Source: Nitrospinaceae bacterium | Lineage (GTDB): Bacteria > Nitrospinota > Nitrospinia > Nitrospinales > Nitrospinaceae | Length of the DNA: 64,000 nucleotides | Assembly (NCBI GenBank): GCA_965223665.1 | Contig: OZ245011.1 | Span: 3,136,001 to 3,200,000, forward strand | Reading direction: 5' to 3' | In this document: positions 2,545-59,346 of the stretch, in pieces | Position numbering within the stretch: the first letter of the stretch is position 1 | Layout: the number at the start of each line of letters is the position of its first letter | Notes under the pieces: model-generated | What the model was told of the DNA's origin: nothing | What the model saw: only the letters and a program-made list of their open reading frames with translations | Databases searched by the model: none | Program-made: the position numbers and the translations under genes

Positions 2545-2644
2545 ACTGTTTTATTATTGGAGAACAATTTGTAAGTGAACAATTTTTTGAAAAGTTGTAA
2601 TCCGAATTTAGGATAAGATTACTTATTCCATATTATCATTTTGG

Positions 2645-11235: not shown

Positions 11236-11243
11236 TTTTATCT

Positions 11244-12704
11244 TTAAGCACACATATTTTTAATTTTGGGAGCAAACTCTAGATAATTAATTTGGCGGCC
11301 TAATAAAGGCCTAAATGCTTGTTTAGGATCATTTGCAACCAGTATGGAACCCAAGGGATGATGCTTTCCACTATGATGGTCATCAACTGTGAATTTAACA
11401 AAACCAAAATCTTTAAAACTATAAATTGAATTTCTAATTCTAATGGCTTTATCTTTTTCCGGAACCATATGAATTGTAAATGTTATTTTATTCCCGTTAA
11501 TATCACATTTTCCTTCCATCCCATTTTGGTTCTTCTCAGAAAAATATTTTTCAAAAATTAATTTCTTTATAAGACATTCATTATTGCTTTTTAATCGGAA
11601 GGTGTATTGAGGTACCATAGCGCTTTCAAATGTTGCAGTAGAGTCTTTGCCAAAAATTAAATTAAAAAATTTAAGGGGATCTTCCAGGCGATAATCACTC
11701 GAAAACTTATTAACATCATCTTGTGAAAGTCGAAGGTTTGCTCCTTGTCCCATGCTAGTAGTCACCAGCATAGTGTATCCATTTTTTTTTGCGATTTTCC
11801 CTATGACTTTTAAATATTTGTCAAGTTCATCCATTGCGAAGAGTATTTCATTTTGATATTTTTTGACCCAATCCTTTGGATAAAGCCTTTCGCAAAAATC
11901 ATCTGGAAAAAGTGCATACCAATACCGATGCATATTTGCGGCAACGTGATTGGTAAATAAAACCGCTAAAGAAGGTTTTTTTCGAATAAGTCCTTTTAAA
12001 AATATTTCACCAATTAAAGGAAATTGAGCCGTTCGCAATCTTTCTTTATTGTGTAGTAGTCCCCCGAGTAAACTTTTTCCAATAGATAAACATGAGCGAG
12101 AGGAAAGCCCCCAGTTTCCAAATGATGGGTTAGCCAACCAATTGGTTGCTGTACCTAAAATTAATTTTTTAACTTGAGTTTGTCTTCGAGAATCTTCTAC
12201 TACCGCTAGGTTAAAGGATTGGAAAGGTTGAAACTTTTTTGGATAAGCTGTAGATGTTGGAGCAAAACAATCTGGAATTGCTAAGCAATAATTACCTTGA
12301 TTTATATATGTTTCCAGGGGTGACGAATGGAGGGTGCTAACGATCATGGTCTTTTTTCTTTTTTGTGCCCAATAATGCCAGTAAAAATCTTCAAAATTTT
12401 TGGGATCGTTATACCAATGGATTTTATGTTCTCGATAAGGGAGCCCTGTATTAAAAGATGCCCAAGTTTGAGAAGGATATAAAAAATCATATTCTACATC
12501 ATTGGCAATAGTTTCTATTAGATTTGTTTGTTTGAGTAAATTGTTAATAAAAGATTTTGGGCGGATTTTGGAGTAATGACGAAACAACTTAGGCGGTATT
12601 TCATTTGCTTCGATTATTAGAAGTTTCAAGTCAAATCCTAATGTAAGGGTATTGCAGAAAAAGTAACAAAAATGAAATAATCTGTCAAATTTAAGGACTA
12701 ACAA
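11244..12704 (-). CDS. Putative alkaline-phosphatase-superfamily protein; likely start TTG at 12629
   Basis: LLIIEANE, PSQTWASFNTG, NHVAANMHRYW and SGKHHPLG follow the superfamily pattern. Confidence 0.55.
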   Translation of the reverse strand: MLVLKFDRLFHFCYFFCNTLTLGFDLKLLIIEANEIPPKLFRHYSKIRPKSFINNLLKQTNLIETIANDVEYDFLYPSQTWASFNTGLPYREHKIHWYNDPKNFEDFYWHYWAQKRKKTMIVSTLHSSPLETYINQGNYCLAIPDCFAPTSTAYPKKFQPFQSFNLAVVEDSRRQTQVKKLILGTATNWLANPSFGNWGLSSRSCLSIGKSLLGGLLHNKERLRTAQFPLIGEIFLKGLIRKKPSLAVLFTNHVAANMHRYWYALFPDDFCERLYPKDWVKKYQNEILFAMDELDKYLKVIGKIAKKNGYTMLVTTSMGQGANLRLSQDDVNKFSSDYRLEDPLKFFNLIFGKDSTATFESAMVPQYTFRLKSNNECLIKKLIFEKYFSEKNQNGMEGKCDINGNKITFTIHMVPEKDKAIRIRNSIYSFKDFGFVKFTVDDHHSGKHHPLGSILVANDPKQAFRPLLGRQINYLEFAPKIKNMCA

Positions 12705-18300: not shown

Positions 18301-18756
18301 ACCATTAATCCGGTTCCAGGTATTCAATTACAGATTCTCATTGAAATTGTGAGAAATTTGGAAATTAATTCTGGTTTTAAAAGCAGTTTGCTAGCTAAAT
18401 TAAATTCTGCTGAAAAGTCTCTTTTGAGATCTAACCAAAGTAATGAGAAAACTGAAAAAATTGTTCTTAAATATAAGAGGCATATTCGTTTTCTTATGCA
18501 TCGTATTCGGTTTTTTATGCAATCTCAAGAAAAGGGATTAGAAAGAATATACCTTCATAATTTGAGAGAATATGTGAAAAGGATTTATACAAGATACATT
18601 CGATTATCTCATTTTCATAAAAATAGTGATCGAACTGCTAAAAAGATTTTAGGGGCTTTCATCAATCAAGTTGAAGGGCAAACTGGTAAGAAAATTGATG
18701 AAGCTCAATCAAATAATATGATTGATAAAGCAAAATTTATTATCAGTCTAATTTAA
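15355..18756 (+). CDS. Secreted FG-GAP (integrin-alpha-like beta-propeller) protein with DUF5011/HYR-type Ig domains and FIMAH-like C-terminus
   Basis: Signal peptide; seven FG..V..AGDFNGDG.DD..VGA repeats; DTxPPxI Ig-like repeats (YVDAGATAxD); C-terminal LGAFINQVEGQTGKKI. Confidence 0.88.
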   Translation: MNTIKLSINFLLWGICTISLVVSPSFANLSKSKAEISSQLPVNGLNKALGNSLKTQSLEGNPFRFKGKTFSLSFSKTQVEFPKVLNAHHPIKLQTPYGMVRQFLVSNDSYIAELQGNFLIYRGNKNSIVYFLDDANNSLREFVFLESASDFSSNQPVIQWRFEGANLKVQGNGSIVLSKVILQKKGKTYKQNLDARINRFLEKQSRKNKNLSYAKKLFEIPKPEFIDGNLKVHYDGLRYSTQGQKLALHLEPKEKLVFPLWVDPSLRADPDANITINGQNSLDHLGFNVASAGDFNGDGLEDVIVGARFDDNNFATNSGSAYIFFGRNSNAPSNLSVDSSADVILNGQSDGDRFGNTVASAGDFNGDGLDDVIVGALFDDNNSEFDSGSAYIFFGRNPGAPLTLRADADANIILDGQSAGDLFGNSVGSAGDFNGDGLDDVIVGANSDDNNGENNSGSAFIFFGQNPANQLTLRADLNANVILNGQSANDQFSVSVATAGDFNGDGLDDVVVGATGDDNNSQTNSGSAYVFFGRSAVTQLNLRADADANIILDGQSTGDLFGGSVASAGDFNNDGRDDIIIGARSDDNNGLDRSGSAFIFFGQNPVTQLILRADANADVIMNGAGFRDQFGFSVSSSGDFNADGFGDVIVGSFLDDNNSEDNSGSAFLFFGRNPSGQLTLQADSDADYIFNGQNSNDQFGISVSGVGDFNGDGVDDVIIGAYQDDNNGEVDSGSAFLFYSPESPPSDTVPPVITVLGNNPVNIDLGNPYVDAGATALDDVDGDISTNILVTGLPVDSSVVGQHIVQYEVSDAAGNSTQAQRIVNVLDSDTIPPELFLLGESPVKVEAGTSYVDAGATATDNIDGDLTASIKISGLPIDTLKVGSHFVKYEVMDAAGNLALLERKVIVNDTTPPSITAPLNITMDQTAEFTTVNLGDPDVKDTIGLGPVFNNAPNKGFPVGKTEVVWTAQDLSGNEATANQQVTINPVPGIQLQILIEIVRNLEINSGFKSSLLAKLNSAEKSLLRSNQSNEKTEKIVLKYKRHIRFLMHRIRFFMQSQEKGLERIYLHNLREYVKRIYTRYIRLSHFHKNSDRTAKKILGAFINQVEGQTGKKIDEAQSNNMIDKAKFIISLI
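16150..17575 (+). repeat. Seven diverged FG-GAP repeats, about 207-bp (69-aa) period
   Basis: The GDFNxDG-encoding motif recurs about every 207 bp between about 16230 and 17490. Confidence 0.85.
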
Positions 18757-18800
18757 GGGAGAGGTCTTTCCCCCCGAGACTTCGTTATACCCTTTGCTGA

Positions 18801-18829
18801 GGAGCCGTCTCCTTTTGGGAGGCGGCTCC
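18801..18829 (+). terminator. GC-rich hairpin after the FG-GAP gene (possible terminator or mRNA stabiliser)
   Basis: GGAGCCGTCTCC/GGAGGCGGCTCC 12-bp stem with one G-U pair; only a weak, delayed T tract follows. Confidence 0.5.
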
Positions 18830-18920
18830 ATATCTATTTTTCAATTCTTTTGTCCCTGCCTTGTAATTCTTGAGAATAAAATATAGTAGAATAGAAAGAA
18901 ATTTAAAATATGGAACCCCA

Positions 18921-19373
18921 ATGCAACAGAAAAATGCAAGATTAAGAATCTTATTTTTGTGCACAGGTAATTCTTGTCGTAGCCAAATGGCCGAAGGATG
19001 GGCTAACAATTTAAAAAGTGATTCCATTGAATCTTATTCGGCAGGGGTGGATCCTCATGGTATGAATGAGAGGGCAATCCAGGTTATGGAAGAAGTTGGT
19101 GTGGATATTTCAGGACACCATTCAAAAAATGTAAAAGAAGTTATGGATATTCCATTTGATTTTGTGATTACGGTTTGTGGATCAGCAGACGAAACCTGCC
19201 CATCTTTTCCAGGAAAAACCAAAGTTATTCATAAAGGGTTCGATGATCCTCCGAAATTGGCTAAAGAAGCCAACTCTGAGGAGGAAGCTTTAGTGCATTA
19301 TCGAAGAGTGAGAGATCAGATCAGGGAATTTATAGAAACGTTACCCGAATATCTCATGGATAATTTAAAGTAG
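18921..19373 (+). CDS. arsC: Arsenate reductase, thioredoxin-coupled (LMW-PTP fold)
   Basis: LFLCTGNSCRSQMAEG active site, VITVC..A.ETCP and FDDP motifs. ATG 18921 preferred over the track's 18870 start. Confidence 0.85.
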   Translation: MQQKNARLRILFLCTGNSCRSQMAEGWANNLKSDSIESYSAGVDPHGMNERAIQVMEEVGVDISGHHSKNVKEVMDIPFDFVITVCGSADETCPSFPGKTKVIHKGFDDPPKLAKEANSEEEALVHYRRVRDQIREFIETLPEYLMDNLK

Positions 19374-19436
19374 AAGCAGTAAAAAATAAATCTTACTTCA
19401 AAATAGACAGCTGTAAAACAAGCAAGGATATGCAAA

Positions 19437-20540
19437 ATGACATTTAAGTTTTTTCAGGAGACCTGCAAACATTCCTATTATTTATTAGGTTTGGTTGCCG
19501 TGAATATAATTTTTGGCTTGTCCTCTGTCGCTTTAGGTCATGAAGAAAAGTCACTTAAGGTAGTGATTGTAGGAGACACAGGAATTGGAGAACGTTCTGC
19601 GAAAAACAGTTTTAAGGCAATTCAAAAGGAGATGCAAAACCATAACGCTGATATTGTTTTGCATCTTGGAGATTTTGTCTATCAGCCGGATAAATTTCCA
19701 GAACATTGTCCGGACCGGTATATTGATACAATTAAGAAAACATTAGTAGATCCTTATTCAATCCGAATTTTTGTTGCAGGAGATAATGATTTGCCTCCAC
19801 ATAAATGGAAGCCCAAAGCCTCTGGTTGTTGGGAGAAAATTGCACCCATGGCAACACCTTTTGATTCGAACCATTCTAAAGAAAATGGGCCGAGAGACCT
19901 TGAAGGGGCTATTGAAATTGGACCAGCACTATTTGTTGTGTTAAATAACTATGATTGGAAAAATCCGGTTTCTTGGGTACAACCACTTATTAGAAAAGCA
20001 CGTCAACAAGAAAAATGGGTGATCTTTGCCCTTCACGAACCTCCTATAACAACGGCTTGGTATCGTAAGCGCAATCAACATATTTTTGAAGACATTAATA
20101 ATTTAAAACCCGATTTAGTATTCTCGGGAAATCAACACTCTTATGAAAGATTTTTTCCGATAAAAAAACTGGGTGATACAATTACTGCATTGGAAAAATC
20201 TTCTTATACACAAGGGTCAGGGATAACTTATATTGTCTCAGGAGGAGGAGGTGCTTTTTTTAAACCCTTTGCCGACATGCAAGGGATTAAAAAACGAACT
20301 GCTCCAAAAGAGATAAAAAATTCTCTTGCTATACGAAGTCTTATGTTTCATTTTGTCAGCTTAGAAATAGACGGTCATAAATTGAAGGGTAAAACAAATC
20401 TTGTTTGTCTCCCAACAGATGACGAAACCACAAACCCTAGGTGGCGTCCGGATGACACCATGTGGGAGGGGGTTAAATTGGAATGTGATGGCAAACCAAC
20501 TGGAACAACCGTATTTGATAGTTTCGAAATTAAAAAATAA
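19437..20540 (+). CDS. Secreted calcineurin-like metallophosphoesterase (purple acid phosphatase-like)
   Basis: Signal peptide; GDTG, LGDFVY, AGDND, LHEP, GNQHSYER and VSGGGG motifs. Confidence 0.8.
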   Translation: MTFKFFQETCKHSYYLLGLVAVNIIFGLSSVALGHEEKSLKVVIVGDTGIGERSAKNSFKAIQKEMQNHNADIVLHLGDFVYQPDKFPEHCPDRYIDTIKKTLVDPYSIRIFVAGDNDLPPHKWKPKASGCWEKIAPMATPFDSNHSKENGPRDLEGAIEIGPALFVVLNNYDWKNPVSWVQPLIRKARQQEKWVIFALHEPPITTAWYRKRNQHIFEDINNLKPDLVFSGNQHSYERFFPIKKLGDTITALEKSSYTQGSGITYIVSGGGGAFFKPFADMQGIKKRTAPKEIKNSLAIRSLMFHFVSLEIDGHKLKGKTNLVCLPTDDETTNPRWRPDDTMWEGVKLECDGKPTGTTVFDSFEIKK

Positions 20541-40211: not shown

Positions 40212-41015
40212 CTAAAGTGGGCGTTGCGATTTTTTGACGATGTCTTTATCGAAATAATTAATGGACATTCCTGCATCGAGAACGATTCCCTGTGCATTAA
40301 TACCACTGGAGCGTTCACTTAATAAAAACACTGCTGTGTTGGCTACTTCTTGAGTGGTGAGAGCCTTTTTTCTTAGAGTCAATTGTTCCGCATGAAGGTA
40401 GGAGTCAATATAACCAGGAATACCCGCTGATGCAGAGGATTTAAGTAGACCTGCATTGACAGAATTAAAACGAATTTGTGAGAAGGTGCTGAAGGACTTA
40501 GCAAGAAAGCAAAGGGATGAATCCAGTGCCGCTTTTGCAGGCCCCATATAGCCATAGTTTTCTGCCGCCATTCGTGTTGTGGATATTGATACGGTAACAA
40601 TGGAGGCATTTTTATCAAACAATTCTTTAAATGCGTTGGCAAGTTGAATAAGTGAAAAACACGAAATATCCACGCACTGCAAAAAATCTTGTTTTTTAGT
40701 CTCGTGGAATGGCTTCAATCCTTCTGCAAAGTTTGCAAATGCAATCGAGTGGACCATTCCGTGAAGAACATCAGTTTCGTTTTTAATCTGATTTCGTAAT
40801 TTCTCAATTTCTTCAGACTTCTCAACGTCGCAAACGAACACCGGTGCTGGTTTTACCAAAGCTTCAGTACATTTTTTTCGATTTTCGCTGCGCACACTAT
40901 ATAGAACATTTGCTCCTTGCTCGGTAAGAGTTTTCCCAATATAGTGAGCCACACTTTTTTTGTTTGCCACCCCGGTGACTAAAATGGTTTTACCTTGCAA
41001 CTCAAGAAAGCTCAC
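40212..41015 (-). CDS. fabI: Enoyl-ACP reductase (FabI-like SDR)
   Basis: [16 protein letters not shown] and [12 protein letters not shown] (Y-x6-K) motifs. Confidence 0.85.
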
Positions 41016-41437
41016 AGGCTATCCTCCATCATCATTGCAGTGAATTCAACTGAGCAAGCGAGCTTACCATTAACAAAAGCTTTGCCCTTAAGGTAATGAG
41101 CCGGTCCAATGGCCTCAACATGATTTACTTCCATTTCTAGTTGGTCACCTGGATAAACAGGATTCTTGAACTTTACATTTTGTATTCTAGTTAATACAGG
41201 AACGCCGGAAGGAAATCCTCCTAAACGTTTTGATATTAATATGGCTCCAGTTTGGAATACACTTTCACAAATTAAAACTCCCGGCATGATGGGATGATTG
41301 GGATAATGCCCTTTAAAAAAGGATTCGTCAGAATTAATTTGCTTGTGGGCTTTAATATATTGATCTGTTTGTTCCAGGATTTTATCAACAAATAAAAATG
41401 GAGGCCGGTGTGGAATAGAATTTTCAATTTCGTTCAT
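41012..41437 (-). CDS. fabZ: 3-hydroxyacyl-ACP dehydratase (FabZ-like)
   Basis: [29 protein letters not shown] and [10 protein letters not shown] motifs. ATG 41437 preferred over 41515, which lies inside fabG. Confidence 0.88.
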
Positions 41438-41439
41438 GG

Positions 41440-42183
41440 TTACAAACCTCCTGTAACTTCCAATACTGCACCATTGATATAAGATGATTCTCTGGAAGCA
41501 AGAAATAGTACACAATGTGCTACATCATCTACATTCCCAAATCGTTTTAGAGGAATTTGTTTTAAATATTTTTCCTTTTGGTCTTCAGACAAGTCAGCGA
41601 TAAACTCAGTATCAATAAATCCGGGAGAAACACAGTTGACAGTTATTTTGCGAGTAGCTACTTCTTTGGATAAGGACTTGGTAAGTGCGACTTGTCCCGC
41701 TTTGGTAGCAGCATAATTTGACTGACCAGGAAAACCAAATTTACCTATGGGGGAAGTGATATTAATGATTCGACCGTAGCGTTGTCGCATCAAATTCTGT
41801 ACTCCCAATTTACACATATGAAATGTTCCGGTGAGATTGGTATCTATGACTTGAGTCCAGTCCTCCTCACGCATCATCCCTAAAACTGAGTCCCGGCGAA
41901 TTCCCGAATTGTTTACTAAGATTTCAAATTTACCGAAGGATTCTTCAATAAACCTAAAAAAACTTTCAACCTCTGAAAATTGTGTTATATCAAATTGTTT
42001 TAGATGCAATTGATTTTTAAATTCTTTATTAGCTTCTAGAAATTTTTCAGCTGCTTGTTGATTAGCCTGAAAGGTAGCAACTACAGTTGCGCCTGCTTTT
42101 AAAAAGGACTCGACAATACCTCGACCAATGCCGCGGGTACCACCTGTTACAATTACAGTTTGGCCTGTAAAATCGAATTTCAT
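41440..42183 (-). CDS. fabG: 3-oxoacyl-ACP reductase
   Basis: TGGTRGIG, LVNNSGI, GQSNYAATKAG and PGFIDT motifs. Confidence 0.88.
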   Translation of the reverse strand: MKFDFTGQTVIVTGGTRGIGRGIVESFLKAGATVVATFQANQQAAEKFLEANKEFKNQLHLKQFDITQFSEVESFFRFIEESFGKFEILVNNSGIRRDSVLGMMREEDWTQVIDTNLTGTFHMCKLGVQNLMRQRYGRIINITSPIGKFGFPGQSNYAATKAGQVALTKSLSKEVATRKITVNCVSPGFIDTEFIADLSEDQKEKYLKQIPLKRFGNVDDVAHCVLFLASRESSYINGAVLEVTGGL

Positions 42184-42253
42184 GGATAAGGAAGATTAAA
42201 GGAAGAGAGTACCCAATATTCATTTAAAGAAACTGTATTGAGTAATTTTTTAA

Positions 42254-43702
42254 TTATACACTTACAACTTCTAGTTCTTCTTTTGGCGTATGGATCTTTT
42301 GTAAAAACTTGTCCACTTCGTTTGCGACTATTACGCCATAGTTTGCTGCACCCAACCAACCCGACATGATTATCCCAACTGATCCAGCATGAAACAAGCC
42401 AGCAATTTCTTTTGGTAGTTCTTTACTTACCTTGAGGCCCTCAAATTTGGTTCCAAATGAAACCCCTCCAGGGTGCTGGGTGTAACGTTTAAATGTTTTA
42501 GGGGTAGAAGCTTCTAAGTGACCTATCTTATTTCTAATTTCAGGTACATACCGTTCCAGGGCATTTAGAGTAGTTTCAATTAATTCCTGTTTCTTTTTTT
42601 TATATTCTTGTTCTTTCAAATGGGCCCAGTCCTGAAAACGGGCATTCGTGGAAGCTACGATGGCATACATTTTAGATCCGGGTCTCAATTCCGGGTAATA
42701 AAAAGAAAATGTTCTGCTAGTGGTATGAGGTTCTAAAAGCTTTTCAGAATCAAATTCTGGTTCTTGTGAAGTGAATAACAGATCCCCGATATTATCGATT
42801 TTTTCACCACGTTTTATTCCTATATATACTTGGCAACTACTGTCGTTCAGTCTTACCTTTTTTACTTCGTTCAGGTACTCTTCTGAGAAATGTTCATCTC
42901 CTGCCAATTTATGAATAGTTGTCAATAGGTTTGAATTAGACAGTACCGCATTAGAATGAACCTCTCTTCCATTAACCCTGACTCCAACAATCTTTTTATT
43001 TTCCACCAGAATTTTATCCACTAAGCAATGAGTGCGGATGTCCACTCCATTTCGAAGAAGTTCTTTTTTCATCTTTTTTATGAGAGCATTGGTTCCTCCC
43101 TCAAAGGTATAAACCCCTTTGTCCATGAAATTTGAAAATACGATACCATAAGTGATAGCAGGGTCATCTAATGTAGATCCATTGGCATACGTAATGGGTT
43201 CCATGAGAAGGCGATGAACATCAGTTCGTCCAGGGAAAAACTTTTCAAATAGATCCCGAGTGGTCATACTTAAGTCATCATAAAAATTCATTCCCCGAAC
43301 GGTAGTAAAAAAATCATCTATAGTTTCTTTTAAAATTCCAAATCGTTCGCGCATTAGGCGGGTGAAGTCCACCTTGTCGAAGGAGGTCATGAAAGAAAAC
43401 TGTGGATTATCAAATCGAATATTTTTAAGACGGATGATAGAATCAGCAATTTCTTTAGACCAGTATTTTCTACAAGTCTTAATCATACCAATTGGAAAGC
43501 CATGAAGGGAAATATCTAATATATGTCCCCCTTTTCGCTTAAACCAGGTAGCTAATCCTCCTAAATTATAATGATGCTCAAGGATCAGTACTTTATGACC
43601 CATTTTTGCTAATTTGTTTGCAGCAGTGAGTCCACCTAAACCGCTACCGATGATTATTGTGTCGTATGCTTGTTTTACTCCTTTTAACCAGTATTTCGAC
43701 AT
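42254..43702 (-). CDS. Phytoene desaturase (CrtI)/RetSat-like FAD oxidoreductase B
   Basis: [12 protein letters not shown]...LEHH..LGG Rossmann motif, [19 protein letters not shown] 43702 overlaps the upstream stop (TAATG). Confidence 0.85.
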
Positions 43703-45114
43703 TAAATTCTCCCGTATTCCGGTTTGCTTTGACCCTGCAAAACATGCAGATTGGCCATCGATATCCCACTCAGCGTCGCACCAATAATACCTAAAAATCC
43801 CTGATCTGTCCCACAAATAAACAAATTTCTGATGGGTGTGAATCCGTTTTTGACTTTTTTAGGGGAACCATAAACTGCACCATTGAGGTGTCCTGTGTAT
43901 TTTTTTATGGTTTTTGGCGTAAAAGTGTCTAAAAATACCACATGTTCCCGAAAATCGGGAAAAAATTTGAGCAAAGCTTCTACCGCCTGGTCCCTGCAGG
44001 CTTTCTTGGCAGCACGGTAGTCTTTACGAATCATAGAGTCCCAGAATTTAAAATTCGCTTGATTCGTCACGCGTATTATCCCCTCGAAATTGGAGCCATT
44101 ATAATTAAAATTATTGGGGACACATAATACCCCACTGGTTGTGTCGGTCAGTTTGTCTGGAACGCGATAATGAAATTGAGGTTCTGTACAATAGAACACT
44201 ATACTTTTATCATAACCGATTTTTTTTGGTTCACTACCTAAAACGAATAAAGATTCTAAAAAAGACATTTGTCCAATTTCATGATTTTCTAAGCCATCCA
44301 CATTAGGATCACAAAGTTTCATCGTTTCCACGTAACCCGCTGAGGATATTACTTTATCTACCTCAATATTTTCACCTGAATCTAACTGAATGGACTTCAA
44401 AACCCCGTTTTGGTGTCTGATTTGATTTACCCCGGCACCCATTTTTAATTCTCCCCCCAGGTTTTGGTATTTTTTTACCAACATATTAAGTATGGCGACC
44501 ATGCCATCCCGGGGGCGGGCGAACCCTTCCAAATAAACACTTTTAAACATGATGACGAATTGATAAAAATCCATATCATGCTCTTGAGCATTTCCATAAA
44601 ACATTAGGGGGCAAAATATCATATCGATCAAAAGTGGATCTGATAAATACTGATTTAAAACTTGACGGGAGGAAAGTTGCTGATGGTTATTTATGTCTAA
44701 CTCATTAAAACTCCTAATGTGATTTAGTAACTTGCGAAATCCATCAATTTGACTAGGGAATTGTTCAGCGACCTCCTGCTCAAAAAAACTAAAATCATTA
44801 TGAAACCTGAGTGATTTTCCCGGGAACCGGATTTCTGACATTTCTTGTTCGCATAATTGTAAATCTTCATGTTTCAATCGAAGTTGTTTGAGAAGTTTTC
44901 CAAGAGGGGAAGACCGCATTCCCTTAGGGGTGAAATTGGTCATAGCGTGCAAACCAACATCAAAAGTTCGGTTTTTTCTGACATAAAAGGAGTTGAGACC
45001 TCCGACTTCGACATGCTTTTCCACAATTAGTACCTTTTTATCGAAAAGCGCTAGTCGAATGCCTGCGGCCAAACCAGATAAACCGGCTCCTATTATCAAT
45101 GCATCGTAGGTCAT
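43702..45114 (-). CDS. Phytoene desaturase (CrtI)/RetSat-like FAD oxidoreductase A
   Basis: [12 protein letters not shown]...[22 protein letters not shown]...GAVYG and NLFICG motifs. Confidence 0.85.
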
Positions 45115-45183
45115 GAAATGAATAATGAACCAGGAAACTTAATAAATCAATAGGTGGGAAAATTGAGAAAAATCAGAATTATT

Positions 45184-45447
45184 TTAGGTGACAGGCTCTT
45201 GATCCTGCAATCGGGGAAATAGATAAGCTATACAGCTCGACATACTGACAAGCTCAGGGTAATCGTTTTCAGGAACCTCCAAATTGTAACGTTTGCGTAA
45301 TTCCATCACGATGTCCAAAAAGTCCATGGAATCCAGGTCAAATTGGTCCCGAAGCTTTTCATCGTCTTTAAGCTTGCTTAAATCTTCATCTGGGGCAATA
45401 TCTGCAATGATATCAATTATCGCTTGTCGAACTTCGTCCCGGGTCAT
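45184..45447 (-). CDS. Acyl carrier protein
   Basis: Acidic 87-aa protein with LDSMD phosphopantetheine site; RBS AGGAG. Confidence 0.92.
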   Translation of the reverse strand: MTRDEVRQAIIDIIADIAPDEDLSKLKDDEKLRDQFDLDSMDFLDIVMELRKRYNLEVPENDYPELVSMSSCIAYLFPRLQDQEPVT

Positions 45448-45638
45448 CGAGCATAATCTCCTAAATTCTTGATCTTAGGGGAAAAGTCGCTAAATTTCAA
45501 TACTAATTTTAATTCTTTCCGGTTCTCCTTACCTTGAGTAGTTTTAATATTTGTTCCACCTCCTTATACTAATTGAATAACCCAAAAAAGAAGAGGATCT
45601 CATTATTTTAACCTTATCAGGTTCGACGGAGTTTTTAG

Positions 45639-46175
45639 GTGAAATCGTTAATTAAATTTGTTTTTATTGGATTTATTTTTATTATTTTTGTTGAGTTTGC
45701 ATTTAAGTTTTTGGCCACATTTAACCCCAAGGGCTATTTTATTGCTTCCATATTCTATCCTTTTTACCTGATCCTAATTTATTTTTTAAGCAGTCTCCTG
45801 GATAGAGTTTTTCCAAATAAACTGGTCGCCAATGTAATTGCATTTTTTCTATTTGGGTTTATGGGACTATTCATTGAATGGAATTTATTAGGGAATTCTC
45901 CCAGTGGAAATCCCAATGCCAACCAAATAGGAATGTTTGCTTTTTGGGCGGTGTATTGCTGTATGCCTCGTTTGTTTTTAGATTCGGAAACTTCTTCTAC
46001 CTTGAAGTTAAATATAAAGCGATTTTTTGGTTTAAATGTGATCGTTACTTTTCTTATAGCAGTTATATTGCATCAACCGGCTAAGTTTGTGGTGATAATG
46101 TACTTACAGGTTGTGGTTTATGTTTTATTTTCATTCTTCATTTTTTATTATTGGAAGAGTTTAGCGCAAAGATAA
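45639..46175 (+). CDS. Hypothetical multi-pass membrane protein
   Basis: About six hydrophobic segments; antisense to the surrounding fab genes. Confidence 0.7.
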   Translation: MKSLIKFVFIGFIFIIFVEFAFKFLATFNPKGYFIASIFYPFYLILIYFLSSLLDRVFPNKLVANVIAFFLFGFMGLFIEWNLLGNSPSGNPNANQIGMFAFWAVYCCMPRLFLDSETSSTLKLNIKRFFGLNVIVTFLIAVILHQPAKFVVIMYLQVVVYVLFSFFIFYYWKSLAQR

Positions 46176-46228
46176 CCCAGGCAAGTTTTATCAGGGTTTT
46201 TTGTATAGGTTTATGTATTTGGCAGAAA

Positions 46229-47461
46229 TTAAAATCGTTTTACGATTAGAACTGAATTAATTCCGAACATGCCAAAGGAATTGTTCATTATTACATCCAC
46301 CTGGTTCAGTAGTTCAGGTTGATTCGCCACAAGATTATTGAGTTGGCACTCGGGATCAATCTCATCCAAATTGATGGTAGGGTGAATATAGTTATCCTCA
46401 AAGGCAGGCAAATTTCCTGTAAGTTCCAATGCTCCAGCGGCACCCATAGTATGTCCAATGTAACTTTTGGTGTTATTGATTCTAGTTCGACCATTGGTCC
46501 CGAAGACTTCTCGAACGGCCTTACACTCTTGGATATCTCCCAGCTGAGTTGCGGTGGCGTGAGTGTTTAGTAATGCGATATCCTCGGGTTGTAATTCTGC
46601 ACGTTTCAAAGCTAAACGCATGCATTCGGCTTGGCGGTTGGGTTCAGGAAGGATATAGTCATACGCATCTGAGTTACTGGCATAACCAATTATTTCACCA
46701 TAAATTTTTGCCCCGCGTTTTTGTGCATCATCTAATCGTTCGAGTGTATAAAGACAACCTCCTTCGGAGCAAACTATCCCATTACGATTTTTATCAAATG
46801 GTCGACTGGCCTTGGTAGGGTCATTATGTTCTGCCAAGGCCCCTTCACTCTTAAAGCTTGCGAATATACCAAAGGTGTGGATACTTTCCGAAACACCTCC
46901 CGCGATGGCCATATCGACTTCACCTAATCGAAGCATTTGAACCCCCTGGATAAGCCCCAAATTCCCCGCGGCGCAAGCGGCTCCAATTGCATAGTGTGGG
47001 CCGGTAATGCCCATATTCAAGGTAACTTCTCCCGCAGGATTATTGGCTACTGTGCGTGGGTTGTGATGATGCGACCAATATTTGGTGTCATACTCATATT
47101 GGCTTATGTTATAGACTTCGTTTTCTGTTTCAACATTTCCATGCTCAGTTGTTCCTATGTAAACCCCAATCCGTGATTTGTCGAGAGCATCAAAATCAAT
47201 CGATGAATCAAGGACTGCTTCGCGGGAACAATAGACTGCAATTGATCCGGCACGTGTTCCGCGACGGACATCTTTTTTCTTTTGGTAACGCAGTTCATCG
47301 AAATCACACACCCCTGCAAGAACTTCACCCATGAATCGGGTTTTAAACTTTCGAACACCAGATTTACCTTCCAGCAATGATTTGCGAAACTCCGCTAAAG
47401 AATTACCGTTAGGTGCAGTAAGTCCAATTCCTGTAATTACAATACGATCATTTAATGACAC
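46229..47461 (-). CDS. fabF: Beta-ketoacyl-ACP synthase (FabF/FabB-like)
   Basis: Cys-His-His triad: AACAAG, THATATQLGD and KSYIGHTMGAAG; NNSFGMFGIN. Confidence 0.88.
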   Translation of the reverse strand: MSLNDRIVITGIGLTAPNGNSLAEFRKSLLEGKSGVRKFKTRFMGEVLAGVCDFDELRYQKKKDVRRGTRAGSIAVYCSREAVLDSSIDFDALDKSRIGVYIGTTEHGNVETENEVYNISQYEYDTKYWSHHHNPRTVANNPAGEVTLNMGITGPHYAIGAACAAGNLGLIQGVQMLRLGEVDMAIAGGVSESIHTFGIFASFKSEGALAEHNDPTKASRPFDKNRNGIVCSEGGCLYTLERLDDAQKRGAKIYGEIIGYASNSDAYDYILPEPNRQAECMRLALKRAELQPEDIALLNTHATATQLGDIQECKAVREVFGTNGRTRINNTKSYIGHTMGAAGALELTGNLPAFEDNYIHPTINLDEIDPECQLNNLVANQPELLNQVDVIMNNSFGMFGINSVLIVKRF

Positions 47462-47614: not shown

Positions 47615-48091
47615 TCAAATTTTCTCAATGAGTGCCACTGCGTATGCGGCCAGGCCTTCTTCTCGTCCAGGAAACCCAAGTTTCTCAGTAGTTGTTGCTT
47701 TTATATTGACTTGAAAGGGAGAAATACTGAGGGCTTTTGCGAGGTTATCCTTCATTGCGTTCATATAAGACGCTAACTTAGGTTTTTGAGCCACAATGGT
47801 AGAATCAATATTCATGATTTGAAAACCTTTTTCATTAACCATTCGTCCAACCTTTTCCAAAAGCACCAGGCTGGAAACACCGCGCCAACGAGGATCGGTG
47901 TCAGGAAAATAAAGGCCTAAATCGCCACCCCCACTAGCCCCAAGTAGGGCATCACAAATTGCATGGCATAAAGCATCAGCATCTGAATGACCCAAAAGCC
48001 CTTTAGGATGTGGAATTTCCACACCTCCTAAGATCAGTTTTTCGCCTTCTTCAAGGCGATGCACATCATATCCATTACCGACTCTAAACAT
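47615..48091 (-). CDS. ispF: 2-C-methyl-D-erythritol 2,4-cyclodiphosphate synthase
   Basis: GYDVH, GHSDAD..HA..DA and KATTTEKLG motifs. Confidence 0.98.
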
Positions 48092-49210: not shown

Positions 49211-50521
49211 TTACGTTGTGGTAACTTTTGTTTTTACCAGACTAAGTAATGCAAATGGGTGAACCGGCGCTTCCATTTGTATCCAGACACGACCATTCCC
49301 ACCATGGGCAATCGATATAGATTCTTTATTCATATTTTCCATAGCGGTTAATTGAAATTTATGTTGTCCTTCCGGAGAAATGTATTCAAGTTCGTCTCCA
49401 ATTTCAATTCTATTTTTTACTTCAACTTCCATCCACCCCCCAGGCCGTTCTCCAGTAACCTGGCCGGCAAACACTTGCATTAAATCTTCTTCTTGTGGGG
49501 AATCAAATCGTTCGGTTTCATGGTCAGATTTAGGAACATAAAATGCTGAAGTAAAGCCGCGATTGGCTGTTTTATTTAGCTCTTCTAATAAACCAGGATT
49601 AAATGGCCGACCTTCAGCAAGGTCGCTCAAGGCTTTGCGATAGGTTCTTACAACCAAGGATAAATAATATATTGTTTTTGAGCGGCCTTCGATTTTTAAA
49701 GAACACACCCCAGCATCTTGGATTTGTTTTAAGAATTCCAAAGCCCGTAAATCTTTAGAATTCATTATGTAGGTCCCGTGCTCGTCTTCATCAATGGGCA
49801 TTAATTCTCCGGGACGCAGTTTCTCTTCAATAAAATATTCGCCTTGAAGAATTTCAGGGTTGTGGGTGCTTTGTGAATAGTCTGTTGTGGATTCAGAATT
49901 TTCTTGGGTTAGGTTATATTCCCAACGACAACTGTTAGTGCATGTTCCCTGGTTAGCATCACGGTGGTTAAAATAATTTGATAAAAGGCATCGGCCCGAA
50001 TAAGCAATACAAATTGCACCATGAACAAATGCTTCCAGCTCAATACCAGGAACTTTTTCATGAATTTCATGGACCTCGGGCAAGGACAATTCACGTGAAA
50101 GAATAATGCGTTTTACACCCTGTTCATACCAAAATTGAACAGTAGGCCAATTCATCGTATTGGTTTGTACTGAAAGATGAATGGGGATTTGTGGAAACTC
50201 TTTTCGTACAAAAGAAATCATTCCCGGATCCGCCATAATAAAAGCATCAGGCTCCGCTTCTGCGAAATATGCTAATGATTTTTTAAACGATTCGATTTTT
50301 CGATTAGGAGGTAAAATATTTGCAGTGATATAAATCTTTTTACCTAATTGATGGGACCTGTCAATTGCGGTCTTTAAGGTCGCATCTTTAAAAGGATTTT
50401 CACGCGCTCGTAAAGAGAACTTTGGAATTCCTGCATAAATCGCATCTGCTCCGTAAGCAAAAGCATATTCCATCTTTTCTGGACTGCCCGCAGGCGCTAA
50501 TAATTCTGGGATAAGATGCAT
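49211..50521 (-). CDS. trhP: Peptidase U32 family tRNA hydroxylation protein (TrhP/YegQ-like)
   Basis: ELLAPAG, HLSVQ, ILSRELS, VHGAICIAYSGRCLLS..NQGTCTNSCRW, EDEHGTYIMNSKDL and SLKIEGR motifs. Confidence 0.85.
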   Translation of the reverse strand: MHLIPELLAPAGSPEKMEYAFAYGADAIYAGIPKFSLRARENPFKDATLKTAIDRSHQLGKKIYITANILPPNRKIESFKKSLAYFAEAEPDAFIMADPGMISFVRKEFPQIPIHLSVQTNTMNWPTVQFWYEQGVKRIILSRELSLPEVHEIHEKVPGIELEAFVHGAICIAYSGRCLLSNYFNHRDANQGTCTNSCRWEYNLTQENSESTTDYSQSTHNPEILQGEYFIEEKLRPGELMPIDEDEHGTYIMNSKDLRALEFLKQIQDAGVCSLKIEGRSKTIYYLSLVVRTYRKALSDLAEGRPFNPGLLEELNKTANRGFTSAFYVPKSDHETERFDSPQEEDLMQVFAGQVTGERPGGWMEVEVKNRIEIGDELEYISPEGQHKFQLTAMENMNKESISIAHGGNGRVWIQMEAPVHPFALLSLVKTKVTTT

Positions 50522-55950: not shown

Positions 55951-58900
55951 TTATTGCGAGTAAGTAATAGTGATCTTAGGTCTTTTTGAAGAAGCTTCAC
56001 TGGAATTAAAACCAATTCCATTGTTAGACCCATTAGAACGGATAATGAATCCTCGATTCCAAATACTGCCGTCGATCCAACCTTGAACTATGTTTATACC
56101 ATTCTGATTCAAAAAGATTTCCTGTTCATTGAAAATGTTAGATGGAATGGTGCCCAAAATGGTCGATCCAATTTCGCCGGATCCGCTAAATTCATTCCAA
56201 TCAACGGTGCTTTCAGACCAGGAGGATTTGGCTTCATACAAATGATGGTCAGCCGAACTACCATCTGAAATGTTAAAGGTCATACTGACGGATTGGACAA
56301 CAGCATTGCTGGGAATAGAAGACAAGTCCCATAAGATAACACTCATAACTTCCCCATAATTTCCGTTTGAAGGATCAGAGGCCACCCCGTCAACTAACAA
56401 TATGTTATCGTTTCCGACATTCGAGTTTGGAGAAGTTTCTCTTAAGGAAGCATCTCTAGTACCTGAATAACCGTCCACCCCATTTTGAAGGCTAACTGTG
56501 TTTCCACCTCCAACGGAATAAGTAATAGTGATCTTAGGTCTTTTTGAAGAAGCTTCACTGGAATTAAAACCAATTCCATTGTTAGACCCATTAGAACGGA
56601 TAATGAATCCTCGATTCCAAATACTGCCGTCGATCCAACCTTGAACTATGTTTATACCATTCTGATTCAAAAAGATTTCCTGTTCATTGAAAATGTTAGA
56701 TGGAATGGTGCCCAAAATGGTCGATCCAATTTCGCCGGATCCGCTAAATTCATTCCAATCAACGGTGCTTTCAGACCAGGAGGATTTGGCTTCATACAAA
56801 TGATGGTCAGCCGAACTACCATCTGAAATGTTAAAGGTCATACTGACGGATTGGACAACAGCATTGCTGGGAATAGAAGACAAGTCCCATAAGATAACAC
56901 TCATAACTTCCCCATAATTTCCGTTTGAAGGATCAGAGGCCACCCCGTCAACTAACAATATGTTATCGTTTCCGACATTCGAGTTTGGAGAAGTTTCTCT
57001 TAAGGAAGCATCTCTAGTACCTGAATAACCGTCCACCCCATTTTGAAGGCTAACTGTGTTTCCACCTCCAACGGAATAAGTAATAGTGATCTTAGGTCTT
57101 TTTGAAGAAGCTTCACTGGAATTAAAACCAATTCCATTATTATTTCCATCGGTCCGTATAACAAAACCTCTATTAGAAATGCTTCCATCAACCCAACTTT
57201 GAACCAAATTTACACCACTCTGATTTAAAGGAATTTCTTGTTCATTAAAAAGATTAGGGCCAATTGTTCCTAGGATAGCAGAACCGATATCACCAGAATT
57301 ATTAAAGTCGTTCCAATCAACCGTACTTTCAGACCATGAAGATTTGGCTTCATGAAAATAATGGTTTCCAGAACTGGCATCTGAAAAGTTTAGTGTCACA
57401 CTGACGGATTGGACCACCGCATTGCTGGGAATTGAAGACAAATCCCATAAGAGCACTGACACTACTTCCCCATAAGAACCATTTTCAGGATCGGGCGCAG
57501 TACCATCAACCCATAGGAGACTGTCGTTTCCATAATTGGTGTTTGGAGAAGATTCTCGCAACAAAGCGTCTCTTGTTCCGCTATAACCGTCCACCCCATT
57601 TTGAAGGCTAACTGTGTTTCCACCTCCAGGAGGGGGCGGTGGCGGAGGAGGAGGTGGCGGACTTCCGCCACTAAAAGTCGAATTTTCATTTATATTAAAT
57701 TGAATTCCTGGACTTGGAATGGGCAAATTCGCTGCATAGTCTTTGACATTAACCACGGTTAATACTTCGGATCCTGTGGCTGATGAGGATGTAGTTAATC
57801 GAACCACTCTTGGATCACTAAGCCGAACGGCACTGCTTATGGATACACCGTTATCTAACGAATAATTGCTTTTAGTTTCAGCACTCGATTTATGGACGGG
57901 TTCTGAAAATTGCACATCCAGTTTTGTACTATTAATTCGGTGCACCGCAAAAATTGCAGGGGGTGCCACATCACCAGATTTTGCAATGGTGAACTTATCG
58001 CGAATCAATCCATCGTCATCCAGGAACTGGGCTTCCATTCGATTAGCGTAGATATCTAAAATCATAGAACCCAGGATGGCATCTCCATAATCATATTCAG
58101 TGTACATAATGGGATGCATTGGGGATCCATTGGTGGACTGATGACGGCTGGATATTCCCATAACGGCATACACCGTTCCGGTATTACCAGATTTTATATA
58201 GGCTCCATCTGCTCCTGATTCCGGAAATGATTTTCCATTGCTGGAAGTGATTTTACTTCCATTATTTGTTAGAAAGGAACGTTCATACCAGTGATTATTT
58301 CCACTCAATACTAAATCGACACCATGAGACTCCAGGATTGGAACGATATTTTCCCGTAATTCGTTTGGAATTAAGCTGGTGTTATTAACTGCATTGGAGT
58401 AAGGAGGATTGTGAAAGATGCAGATAATCCAATCCTGGTTTGTTGAACTCAAATCATCATCCAACCAATTTACCATTGCAGATCCGGAATTGCGGGGTCG
58501 AGTCAGAGAATTTAAAACTACTATATGGATATTGTTGTAATCGAAAGAATAATAATCTTCGACACCGGAAGACACTCCCCCATTTTCTCCATTCTTAGGA
58601 AATTCAAAATTATTGAAAAAAGGACCTGCTTGAGTGTTTACATCTGAATAAGGTTCGCCATCTGAGAATGTGGTGTATATTGGAGTGTCTTTTAATATTT
58701 CTGAAATTGCATTAAACAATCCACCCTGATACGCCCCATCGGAGCCTTCCCAAAAACCTCCATTGGTATAAGCATTATCACCTAGGGCAAATAAGAGATC
58801 CGCTCGCCGTTTTTTTGTGTAATTTTTAAAGGAATCACGAACTTTGGCCGCATTAGCATCTCCGGTACCCGAATCACCAATAACCCATATTCGTGTTGGT

Positions 58901-59346
58901 TGTGGGCTACCGCCACCAACGGGTGTCATAAAACTACCCCGGGCAGAGGACTCGTTTAATGGAGAGCTTGAAGTTCCAATTTCATAATAATATCGAGTGC
59001 CGGGACTCAAATTAGTTAAAGTAACTGTATGCTCTAGCAAGTTTCCACAACTACTGCACAAAGAAACGCTTTTGGGGTCGGAATCGGATTTAACAGCGCT
59101 GTAATTTTGGGGAAACTCGCCATAGTGAACACTCTTATAGGAGGACTCTGAAGTGCTCACTCTCCATTTAACTACCACACTCGTGGGACTTATTTTTTGT
59201 AAGTATGGACCCCGATCAACTGTACCAGCGGTGACTTCTAAAACATGGAGAAGTAGAAAGGCAACGATAAGAAAAGTGTGAAGTAAATAAGGAAAAAGAT
59301 GTTTTTGAGTTTTTTCTGTAAAACAAAATTTCACGATATACCTCAT
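55951..59346 (-). CDS. Secreted purple-acid-phosphatase-like protein with Ig-like domain, poly-Pro linker and three DNRLRE (CBM96-like) domains
   Basis: Signal peptide; RGPYLQ FN3-like N-domain; GDSG, GDNAY, FHNPP, GNNH.YER; FSEPV...A....NY Ig-like domain; Pro run; three GY.GT.DA.L...P...W.E..V.W...SSE....RP.I domains. Confidence 0.85.
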   Translation of the reverse strand: MRYIVKFCFTEKTQKHLFPYLLHTFLIVAFLLLHVLEVTAGTVDRGPYLQKISPTSVVVKWRVSTSESSYKSVHYGEFPQNYSAVKSDSDPKSVSLCSSCGNLLEHTVTLTNLSPGTRYYYEIGTSSSPLNESSARGSFMTPVGGGSPQPTRIWVIGDSGTGDANAAKVRDSFKNYTKKRRADLLFALGDNAYTNGGFWEGSDGAYQGGLFNAISEILKDTPIYTTFSDGEPYSDVNTQAGPFFNNFEFPKNGENGGVSSGVEDYYSFDYNNIHIVVLNSLTRPRNSGSAMVNWLDDDLSSTNQDWIICIFHNPPYSNAVNNTSLIPNELRENIVPILESHGVDLVLSGNNHWYERSFLTNNGSKITSSNGKSFPESGADGAYIKSGNTGTVYAVMGISSRHQSTNGSPMHPIMYTEYDYGDAILGSMILDIYANRMEAQFLDDDGLIRDKFTIAKSGDVAPPAIFAVHRINSTKLDVQFSEPVHKSSAETKSNYSLDNGVSISSAVRLSDPRVVRLTTSSSATGSEVLTVVNVKDYAANLPIPSPGIQFNINENSTFSGGSPPPPPPPPPPPGGGNTVSLQNGVDGYSGTRDALLRESSPNTNYGNDSLLWVDGTAPDPENGSYGEVVSVLLWDLSSIPSNAVVQSVSVTLNFSDASSGNHYFHEAKSSWSESTVDWNDFNNSGDIGSAILGTIGPNLFNEQEIPLNQSGVNLVQSWVDGSISNRGFVIRTDGNNNGIGFNSSEASSKRPKITITYSVGGGNTVSLQNGVDGYSGTRDASLRETSPNSNVGNDNILLVDGVASDPSNGNYGEVMSVILWDLSSIPSNAVVQSVSMTFNISDGSSADHHLYEAKSSWSESTVDWNEFSGSGEIGSTILGTIPSNIFNEQEIFLNQNGINIVQGWIDGSIWNRGFIIRSNGSNNGIGFNSSEASSKRPKITITYSVGGGNTVSLQNGVDGYSGTRDASLRETSPNSNVGNDNILLVDGVASDPSNGNYGEVMSVILWDLSSIPSNAVVQSVSMTFNISDGSSADHHLYEAKSSWSESTVDWNEFSGSGEIGSTILGTIPSNIFNEQEIFLNQNGINIVQGWIDGSIWNRGFIIRSNGSNNGIGFNSSEASSKRPKITITYSQ
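55961..57138. repeat. Near-perfect 558-bp tandem repeat (about 2.1 units) encoding the last two DNRLRE domains
   Basis: TAAGTAATAGTGATCTTAGG starts at 55961, 56519 and 57077; identical translations in both the coding and an alternate frame. Confidence 0.93.

Follow-up and report, generated by a model that had tools for sequence, protein, structure and literature searches.

The minus strand of a 64 kb stretch of DNA from a Nitrospinaceae bacterium (contig OZ245011.1; hereafter the window, ~37% G+C) carries seven genes at 40212-47461 that may encode a dedicated, dissociated and O2-independent type II synthase making a polyunsaturated acyl thioester, a reading that we hold tentatively, with a confidence slightly short of even. 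The genes specify a FabF-like beta-ketoacyl-ACP synthase (KS), an acyl carrier protein (ACP), two FAD flavoproteins with a predicted CrtI-type fold (FpA and FpB), and FabG-, FabZ-, and FabI-type enzymes. The strongest functional clue is the linkage of this cluster to ole (olefin) genes in other phyla, which is not visible from the window alone. Coordinates are window positions, except where a locus in another genome is named.

The open reading frame (ORF) listing, Pfam, and NCBIfam agreed on seven minus-strand genes over the span given in the original prediction (Table 1). The longest ORF for FpB (42254-43816, TTG start, 520 amino acids [aa]) overlaps FpA by 115 bases; the DNA points instead to the ATG at 43702 as the most probable start, a codon that shares 1 base with the FpA stop (TAATG) and would give a protein of 482 aa. 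A reading of the DNA placed the FabZ ATG at 41437, 2 bases past the fabG stop, and the fabZ TGA and fabI GTG share 4 bases. Spacers of 69 and 70 bases separate ACP from FpA and FpB from FabG, respectively. The genes had been described as mostly tightly packed, and this held for all joints but one, the KS-ACP spacer of 781 bases. This loose joint contains a plus-strand ORF for a very hydrophobic protein (rich in F, I, and L) that matched no Pfam family and is missing from all 73 of the related loci described below. The same gap is filled by a tetratricopeptide repeat gene at a Nitrospina locus (L003), and KS and ACP are adjacent at another locus (L001), so the joint, whose content varies, seems to be insertion-tolerant. 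A promoter and terminator scan gave 23 promoter-like sites (22.6 expected) and eight terminator-like sites (6.2 expected), counts too close to expectation to be informative.

Table 1. Positions of the seven clustered genes and of other features in the window
Feature	Positions	Strand	Product	Family evidence
KS, FabF-like beta-ketoacyl-ACP synthase	46229-47461	-	410 aa, GTG start	ketoacyl-synt N and C domains (Pfam)
ACP, dedicated acyl carrier protein	45184-45447	-	87 aa	PP-binding (Pfam)
FpA, CrtI-fold FAD flavoprotein (fold predicted)	43702-45114	-	470 aa	Amino_oxidase + NAD_binding_8 (Pfam)
FpB, second CrtI-fold FAD flavoprotein (fold predicted)	42254-43702	-	482 aa (most likely start)	Amino_oxidase + NAD_binding_8 (Pfam)
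FabG-type 3-oxoacyl-ACP reductase	41440-42183	-	247 aa	adh_short (Pfam)
FabZ-type 3-hydroxyacyl-ACP dehydratase	41012-41437	-	141 aa	FabA-like domain (Pfam)
FabI-type enoyl-ACP reductase	40212-41015	-	267 aa, GTG start	adh_short_C2 (Pfam)
ORF in the KS-ACP gap	45639-46175	+	178 aa	
ispF, methylerythritol phosphate (MEP)-pathway cyclodiphosphate synthase	47615-48091	-		TIGR00151, 212.6 bits (cut-off 116.45)
U32 peptidase-family protein	49211-50521	-		TrhP equivalog, 557.6 bits (cut-off 534)
Two adjacent leucine-rich-repeat proteins	7578-9750	+		
NAD_binding_8 protein and adjoining opposite-strand protein	9958-12704		425 aa; 486 aa	NAD_binding_8 match only; no Pfam match
FG-GAP/HYR/Ig-like surface protein	15355-18756	+	1133 aa	
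Purple-acid-phosphatase + CBM96 domain protein	55951-59346	-	1131 aa	

All of the operon proteins are single-function proteins of 87-482 aa, and the catalytic motifs of every enzyme are intact. The KS reached neither the fabF model TIGR03150 (333.6 bits, cut-off 493.75) nor omega_3_PfaA (84.6 bits, cut-off 1010), and its nearest solved structure was FabF 4qav (246 bits). Residues C163, H301, and H337 were invariant in 12/12 aligned orthologues, as were two family-specific blocks, TEHGNVETE (105-113) and HHNPRTV (132-138); by these alignments, the KS represents a distinct, highly conserved FabF-like family. The ACP, with its serine at residue 39 in a DSM motif, gave 30.2 bits with PP-binding in Pfam and did not reach TIGR00517 acyl_carrier (31.1, cut-off 70.45). 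FabG scored just under TIGR01830 (284.2, cut-off 297.75) and above the cut-off of subfamily NF009466 (254.7, cut-off 222), with an intact YxxxK (Y157). FabZ, which has its catalytic His in GHYP and its Glu in PGVLICE, passed NF000582 (136.9, cut-off 113) and fell under TIGR01750 (133.4, cut-off 155.15) and the Pfam ApeI-like model (20.9, cut-off 28.5). It was nearer to canonical FabZ 3d6x (101 bits) than to entries 7qv0/8ayc (85 bits), which we take to be the FabZ of anammox bacteria (amxFabZ). FabI retained Y154-x6-K161, had FabI 3oif as its nearest solved structure (134 bits), and did not reach the best FabI equivalog, NF005615 (179.8, cut-off 391).

Among the window ORFs of at least 100 aa, 55/59 were scanned, the other four being shadow ORFs that overlap longer genes. 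No match to FabD, FabH, or PlsX (Pfam, NCBIfam), to CrtB or CrtE, or to radical-SAM families was obtained in these 55 ORFs, and a single KS was present in or near the cluster; the absences had already been noted in the original prediction. KS, ACP, and FabI fall far under their equivalog cut-offs, and together with the lack of FabD, FabH, and PlsX in the window this supports, at the level of sequence, a dedicated type II fatty acid synthesis (FAS-II) set of non-housekeeping appearance built around the two flavoproteins, as first proposed. Since a free-living autotroph cannot do without FabD, FabH, and a canonical AcpP, this genome would be expected to hold a housekeeping fab set elsewhere.

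FpA and FpB each carry an N-terminal FAD-binding GxGxxG motif (FpA, GAGLSG at residue 9; FpB, GSGLGG at residue 19). The two are distant paralogues that align over their full length with 24% identity (E 5e-25). The top-scoring named family for both was carot_isom (TIGR02730; 102.4 for FpA and 104.1 for FpB, cut-off 586.9); crtI_fam (TIGR02734) gave 64.7 and 79.4 (cut-off 238.1), and CrtD was also among the best hidden Markov models (HMMs). Neither protein reached any carotenoid equivalog, the scores lying 2.5- to 6-fold under the family cut-offs, and by HMM score the prediction that these are not true carotenoid enzymes stood. The solved structures nearest in sequence were CrtI 4dgk for FpA (E 1e-11) and 3ka7 and 4rep for FpB. 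AlphaFold (AF2) models built from 24-sequence alignments were confident, with a predicted local distance difference test score (pLDDT) of 87.1 for FpA and 84.6 for FpB. The top Foldseek match was 4rep, a gamma-carotenoid desaturase (TM 0.74 for FpA and 0.71 for FpB), followed by CrtI 4dgk (E 5e-22 and 3e-19) and by 3ka7 and 3nrn, two uncharacterised archaeal oxidoreductases. Identity in the structural alignments with 4rep and 4dgk was just 16-18%. The models thus predict a CrtI-type three-domain fold, yet FpA and FpB form two families of their own. FpA relatives at E<=1e-30 formed ~270 clusters at 50% identity, and FpB had a mean column identity of 67% over 24 orthologues.

A profile scan with an FpA alignment of eight sequences, run over one genome per GTDB species, detected at least 372 relatives. 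The best 80 of these led to 73 loci, whose gene content was determined by tblastn with the window proteins. These loci belonged to Planctomycetota (40), Verrucomicrobiota of Opitutaceae type (15), Bdellovibrionota (7), Nitrospinota (6), Chloroflexota (Dehalococcoidia; 4), and one Syntrophia-like metagenome-assembled genome (MAG), a "Deltaproteobacteria" MAG whose proteins resemble those of Smithella/Syntrophaceae. The order KS-ACP-FpA-FpB-(FabG)-FabZ-FabI recurred in six bacterial groups, which goes beyond chance, so the synteny check revealed strong conservation of gene order outside the window, one of the points on which the original prediction had asked to be judged. KS and ACP lay directly upstream of FpA in 51 of the 67 loci whose sequence extends 1.7 kb or more in that direction. 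Where at least 4.5 kb was available downstream (n=53), FpB was present in 32 loci, FabZ in 31, FabI in 30, and FabG in 8; FabG was part of the cluster in Nitrospinota (3/3), Chloroflexota (3/3), the Syntrophia-like MAG, and Bdellovibrionota (1/5), and in no other group. Among the loci with 8 kb or more of sequence on each side (n=32), 19 carried KS, ACP, FpB, and FabI together. Across the groups, identity to the window proteins was 58-85% for KS, 56-81% for FpB, 55-79% for FabI, and 45-70% for FpA.

The distance between the flavoprotein genes differed among groups: the gap measured 5-52 bases at Nitrospinota loci, 8-39 at Chloroflexota loci, 32-3779 at Planctomycetota loci, 75-1526 at Verrucomicrobiota loci, and 4627 in the Syntrophia-like MAG. 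By these positions, FpA and FpB are coupled in the window, although not all carriers keep the two genes side by side. The original description of two coupled flavoproteins is accurate, in the sense of translational coupling, only for Nitrospinota and Chloroflexota; elsewhere, the two genes lie up to 4.6 kb apart and FpA is often seen with no FpB nearby. At one Verrucomicrobiota locus (L015), FpA and FpB are separated by an ORF at 11426-12289 for a xylose-isomerase-like TIM-barrel protein of 287 aa (AP_endonuc_2). The recurrence of gaps of ~940-1000 bases, at four loci in Verrucomicrobiota and one in Planctomycetota, suggests that an additional gene is conserved there. A tree was built from 50 FpA and 36 FpB sequences (49/69 and 35/36 of the recovered ORFs, plus the window pair). 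Each family was monophyletic, and phyla mostly formed clades within both halves of the tree; the matching clades suggest that the pair was inherited, or transferred, together. Among the best 120 database matches of FpA (63-93% identity), all organism-named entries were of Nitrospina type, including Nitrospina gracilis 3/211, Nitrospinaceae, Ca. Nitrohelix, and Ca. Nitromaritima. The named entries among the best 120 FpB matches (69-100%) were likewise of Nitrospina type, including N. watsonii, with two exceptions (one hydrothermal vent metagenome and one Deltaproteobacteria). The flavoprotein pair is thus a phylum-wide feature of Nitrospinota.

The gene order at one locus (L067) was KS-ACP-FpA-OleA-OleB-OleC-OleD-FpB-FabG-FabZ-FabI. 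The four inserted genes were assigned by Pfam to an OleA-type thiolase, an alpha/beta hydrolase, an AMP-ligase, and a 3beta-hydroxysteroid dehydrogenase (3beta-HSD)-type reductase. The OleA-like thiolase passed NF006720 (396 bits, cut-off 285), and the OleB-like hydrolase is haloalkane-dehalogenase-like, as is OleB itself. The best specific family for the OleC-like ligase was olefin beta-lactone synthetase (506 and 482 bits against cut-offs of 900 and 850), a name that JGI also gives to some of its close relatives, and that for the OleD-like reductase was 2-alkyl-3-oxoalkanoate reductase OleD (392 bits against a cut-off of 580). With these four proteins as tblastn queries (at least 38% identity and at least 50% coverage), 33/73 loci were found to have ole-like genes, and 23/73 had two or more different ones; many loci are short contigs, so these counts are lower bounds. 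Such genes were found in 11/15 Verrucomicrobiota loci, with OleA-OleB directly 3' of FabI, in 6/7 Bdellovibrionota loci, with OleABCD directly 3' of FpA, in 13/40 Planctomycetota loci, and in 2/4 Chloroflexota loci, where only OleA-family genes occurred.

Two further arrangements were observed near the cluster. In two Dehalococcoidia loci (L009, 4435-9833, and L010), a duplicated pair consisting of an OleA-family 3-ketoacyl-ACP synthase III (KAS III) gene and then a KS gene precedes the cluster, with ACP between the pairs. The KAS III genes scored 405 and 426 bits with NF006720, and OleB, OleC, and OleD were absent at these loci. The duplicated pairs may indicate a different priming or condensation logic. 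A pfa-type megasynthase was looked for beside the cluster in a Pirellulaceae MAG (L020) and was not found. Downstream of the cluster at this locus (17024-19505), there are genes for two discrete proteins with FabA-like domains and for a further KS (31% identity to the window KS), which look like another type II lipid or polyketide set.

The genes, their intact motifs, their conserved order, and the ole linkage were observed directly; the chemistry and the product are inferred. In the proposed mechanism, KS, FabG, FabZ, and FabI would drive an elongation cycle on the dedicated ACP, and at chosen cycles FpA and/or FpB would isomerise a double bond or dehydrogenate an enoyl- or acyl-ACP. A double bond placed in this way would escape FabI, and the specialised KS would carry the chain onward. 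In Planctomycetota, Opitutaceae, Bdellovibrionota, and the Syntrophia-like bacterium, the product would be passed to OleABCD, yielding a long, head-to-head polyunsaturated olefin of the C31:9 type. In Nitrospinota, including the window, the chain would probably enter a membrane lipid or become a hydrocarbon via unlinked genes. The cluster is present in strict anaerobe lineages (Dehalococcoidia, the Smithella/Syntrophaceae-like MAG, and, for FpA, Kuenenia), supporting the O2-independence of the pathway. Planctomyces maris and Opitutaceae TAV2 are reported to make C31:9.

Pfa synthases are multidomain megasynthases that form cis bonds via FabA-like dehydratase/isomerase domains and have a FabK-like reductase. 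They need the same activities as the window operon, namely KS, ketoreductase (KR), dehydratase (DH), enoyl reductase (ER), and ACP. The window set differs in consisting of discrete proteins, with a FabZ-type enzyme as the sole dehydratase, a FabI-type reductase, and two added flavoproteins, and the likeness is functional only. The Pfa synthase of Shewanella supplies 16:4 to OleA/OleABCD to give C31:9, and Geobacter bemidjiensis carries pfa and ole genes in tandem (PMC6463001, PMC4882568). Both are comparable with the present system as a secondary, O2-independent lipid synthase that is encoded beside ole and works alongside FAS-II, and the window-type KS/ACP/KR/DH/ER set with its flavoproteins holds the place beside ole that is taken there by pfa. 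On our reading, the system would be a type II counterpart of the Pfa-Ole partnership.

Rattray et al. 2009 (PMC2649909) report that Desulfotalea psychrophila makes C31:8 and C31:9, with no PKS-type (polyketide synthase) pathway to polyunsaturated fatty acids (PUFAs) according to its authors. They describe FASII clusters in this bacterium with amine-oxidase/phytoene-dehydrogenase-like genes (DP1860, DP2405, and DP2406), propose a novel anaerobic route to PUFAs or polyunsaturated hydrocarbons in Desulfotalea and Kuenenia, with which our reading agrees, and cite such hydrocarbons in Planctomycetes. As presented there, the Desulfotalea and Kuenenia clusters resemble the window operon in their divergent FabF paralogues, private ACP, FabZ, and CrtI-like flavoproteins; DP2405 and DP2406 are consecutively numbered, amine-oxidase-type genes. 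The published clusters differ from that of the window in also encoding a CoA ligase, a membrane protein, and radical-SAM enzymes, with FabI located elsewhere in both genomes, and the ole pathway does not feature in that paper.

A bolder version of the polyunsaturated reading, which we consider improbable, would make the cluster a complete, dissociated type II PUFA synthase, with FpA and FpB serving as flavin-dependent enoyl-ACP isomerases (one trans-2 to cis-3, the other trans-2 to cis-2). By our own bookkeeping, anaerobic synthesis of 16:4(n-3) would need KS, KR, DH, and a selective ER, together with two 2,3-isomerisations (C6 and C12) and two 2,2-isomerisations (C8 and C14). The cluster contains one of each standard enzyme and two flavoproteins and would thus equal this enzyme list. 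The nearest named relatives of both flavoproteins include the flavin-dependent isomerase CrtISO.

Several observations weigh against a polyunsaturated product. CrtI-type desaturation gives conjugated bonds, in contrast to the methylene-interrupted bonds of C31:9. FpA stood alone in 8 of the 32 loci with both long flanks, all of them in Planctomycetota, and FpB was missing from 5/5 Bdellovibrionota loci with at least 4.5 kb downstream, indicating that the flavoprotein pair is not obligatory. No ole-like gene was found in the six Nitrospinota loci (0/6; tblastn, Pfam) or in the 64 kb window, where neither the 55 scanned ORFs nor tblastn with the four Ole-like proteins gave a match. The best 120 matches of the OleC-like protein of L067 included no Nitrospina-type name, in a list made up mostly of close relatives of the query. 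As originally stated, no characterised product was found in the literature for this architecture or for any cluster member. Our literature searches found no paper joining phytoene to Ole or olefin and nothing on C31:9 with planctomycetes; those on Nitrospina lipids and on Nitrospina with phytoene gave no relevant title or abstract. For Deltaproteobacteria and Planctomycetes, Shulse and Allen 2011 (PMC3098273) trace the olefin precursor instead to a "Type I" cluster resembling pfa. Expression of Kuenenia phytoene-desaturase-like paralogues in E. coli gave no lycopene (PMC4790861) and, according to Dietl 2023 (PMC10139942), no PUFA; these paralogues may not be orthologues of FpA and FpB.

The absence of nearby ole genes in Nitrospinota, together with the phylum-wide presence of the cluster, keeps alive a plainer alternative, a FabX-like route to ordinary monounsaturated fatty acids, which we regard as unlikely. 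One flavoprotein would produce a cis-3 enoyl-ACP from a medium-chain acyl-ACP by dehydrogenation or isomerisation, the dedicated KS would elongate it as FabB does, and the route would yield membrane 16:1 and 18:1 in bacteria without FabA/FabB. Occurrence throughout Nitrospinota fits such a core membrane function, and the L001 cluster is placed among housekeeping genes. Rattray et al. 2009 (PMC2649909) also found the polyunsaturated hydrocarbons to have the same isotope signature as two 16:1/18:1 isomers. FabX of Helicobacter pylori shows that flavin-dependent, O2-independent synthesis of unsaturated fatty acids exists (PMC8626469), this flavoenzyme making a cis bond on an ACP-bound chain. However, FabX is a decanoyl-ACP dehydrogenase/isomerase of unrelated fold with a [4Fe-4S] cluster, which introduces one double bond and relies on the housekeeping ACP and FabF, without a private ACP, KS, FabZ, or FabI. 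Two distinct flavoproteins exceed the need of one cis bond, and the tight ole linkage in four other groups argues for a special product.

A further possibility, rated slightly lower again, is that the flavoproteins modify the chain in another way, by forming a conjugated polyene acid through true CrtI-like desaturation adjacent to a double bond already present or by RetSat-like saturation, for a pigment, signal, or minor lipid, with the ole link being secondary. The CrtI/CrtD fold of both proteins, with 4rep and 4dgk as the best structural matches, is in keeping with this, as are the best HMMs (carotenoid isomerase and CrtD), the name "all-trans-retinol 13,14-reductase" that JGI gives to some FpB relatives, and the OleA-family KAS III genes without OleB, OleC, and OleD in Dehalococcoidia. 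On the other hand, the presence of FabI implies that most cycles are fully reduced, and tailoring, export, or offloading genes are not conserved with the cluster. Aryl-polyene-type parts are also absent: aryl polyene clusters have an ApeI-type dehydratase, a KS/chain-length factor (CLF) pair, and no enoyl reductase, whereas the window has a FabZ that misses the ApeI-like cut-off, a single KS with its active-site Cys, and FabI.

It is very improbable that these are the genome's housekeeping fab genes with two unrelated flavoprotein genes inserted. FabG and FabZ come near or above some curated cut-offs and all of the enzymes look active from their motifs, but ACP, KS, and FabI miss theirs by wide margins, fabD, fabH, and plsX are lacking in the window, and the flavoproteins travel with KS and ACP across six bacterial groups. 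We give equally little credence to the flavoproteins being genuine carotenoid enzymes, desaturase or isomerase, that merely lie beside fab genes, a view for which the CrtI fold and the position of ispF, hinting at isoprenoids, could be cited. FpA and FpB share with CrtI, CrtD, and CrtISO the fold and the N-terminal GxGxxG, but their conserved partners are KS and ACP rather than crtB and crtE, which the window lacks, and every carotenoid equivalog was widely missed. The ispF gene lies directly upstream of KS in the window and in L001 and L003, and this neighbour could mislead towards a carotenoid reading; it is a housekeeping gene of the MEP pathway and adjoins the cluster in only these two of the 73 loci, both from Nitrospinota.

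The anammox parallel drawn in the original prediction holds only loosely. The anammox cluster comprises amxACP, amxFabZ, two FabF (FabF2 and FabF), one phytoene-dehydrogenase (PDH)-like gene, and a B12 radical-SAM gene (Dietl 2023, PMC10139942; PMC4790861). Its private ACP and FabZ, which work only together, its phytoene-dehydrogenase-like gene, and its lack of a known product recall the window, but its make-up is different, with radical-SAM genes, a second FabF, one flavoprotein, no FabI or FabG, and a distribution restricted to anammox bacteria. A Kuenenia stuttgartiensis MAG (L012, 6914-9829) contains KS-ACP-FpA with 69%, 56%, and 52% identity to the window proteins, followed by an unrelated SpoIIE response regulator, with no FpB within 7.8 kb. 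This gene order fits none of those listed in PMC4790861 or PMC10139942, and the locus seems to be separate from the published "ladderane" clusters. A ladderane-type pathway as proposed for anammox has a practically negligible probability, despite the common theme of ACP, FabZ, FabF-like, and phytoene-dehydrogenase-like genes and the Kuenenia FpA orthologue: radical-SAM and second FabF genes are not present in or near the window cluster, PMC10139942 describes the anammox cluster as confined to organisms that make ladderanes, the Kuenenia locus is KS-ACP-FpA alone in an order unlike the published clusters, and the carriers are overwhelmingly non-anammox, a distribution that effectively refutes it. 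Phytoene-dehydrogenase-like genes beside FAS-II are widespread outside anammox bacteria and are therefore, by themselves, no evidence for ladderane chemistry. The window set and its proteins lie outside the CrtI, CrtISO, Pfa, FabX, aryl-polyene, and anammox-cluster families.

Other window genes deserve brief mention (Table 1). The U32 peptidase-family protein passes the equivalog for TrhP, a prephenate-dependent tRNA U34 hydroxylase. The leucine-rich-repeat, FG-GAP/HYR/Ig-like, and phosphatase/CBM96 proteins make up a surface/adhesion-type set that is unusual for a nitrite oxidiser. The 425-aa NAD_binding_8 protein is another uncharacterised flavoprotein, ~30 kb from the cluster.

The original reading of a dedicated FAS-II set with flavoproteins in conserved order has stood, but the general architecture was already noted by Rattray et al. 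in 2009 as a hypothesis and hence is not categorically new. What is new is that seven genes, among them members of two distinct flavoprotein families, are here defined as a conserved module, that this module occurs in six bacterial groups and in every Nitrospinota genome sampled, and that it is physically interleaved with oleABCD. If the polyunsaturated reading is true, anaerobic polyunsaturated lipids would be made by seven small, discrete enzymes that are easier to dissect and engineer than Pfa megasynthases, and the source of C31:9-type hydrocarbons in Planctomycetes, Opitutaceae, Bacteriovorax, and Desulfotalea-like bacteria would be explained. It would also provide a first function for two sizeable CrtI-fold families now annotated as "phytoene dehydrogenase". 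Should the bolder isomerase version be true, the cluster would represent a third, so far unrecognised way to methylene-interrupted polyenes, after O2-dependent desaturases and Pfa megasynthases, and would supply the missing C31:9 precursor in bacteria without pfa genes, by a route that six or more bacterial groups share, among them the principal nitrite oxidisers of the ocean. For Nitrospinota, the polyunsaturated reading would predict an unrecognised lipid with relevance to marine nitrogen cycling and lipid biomarkers.

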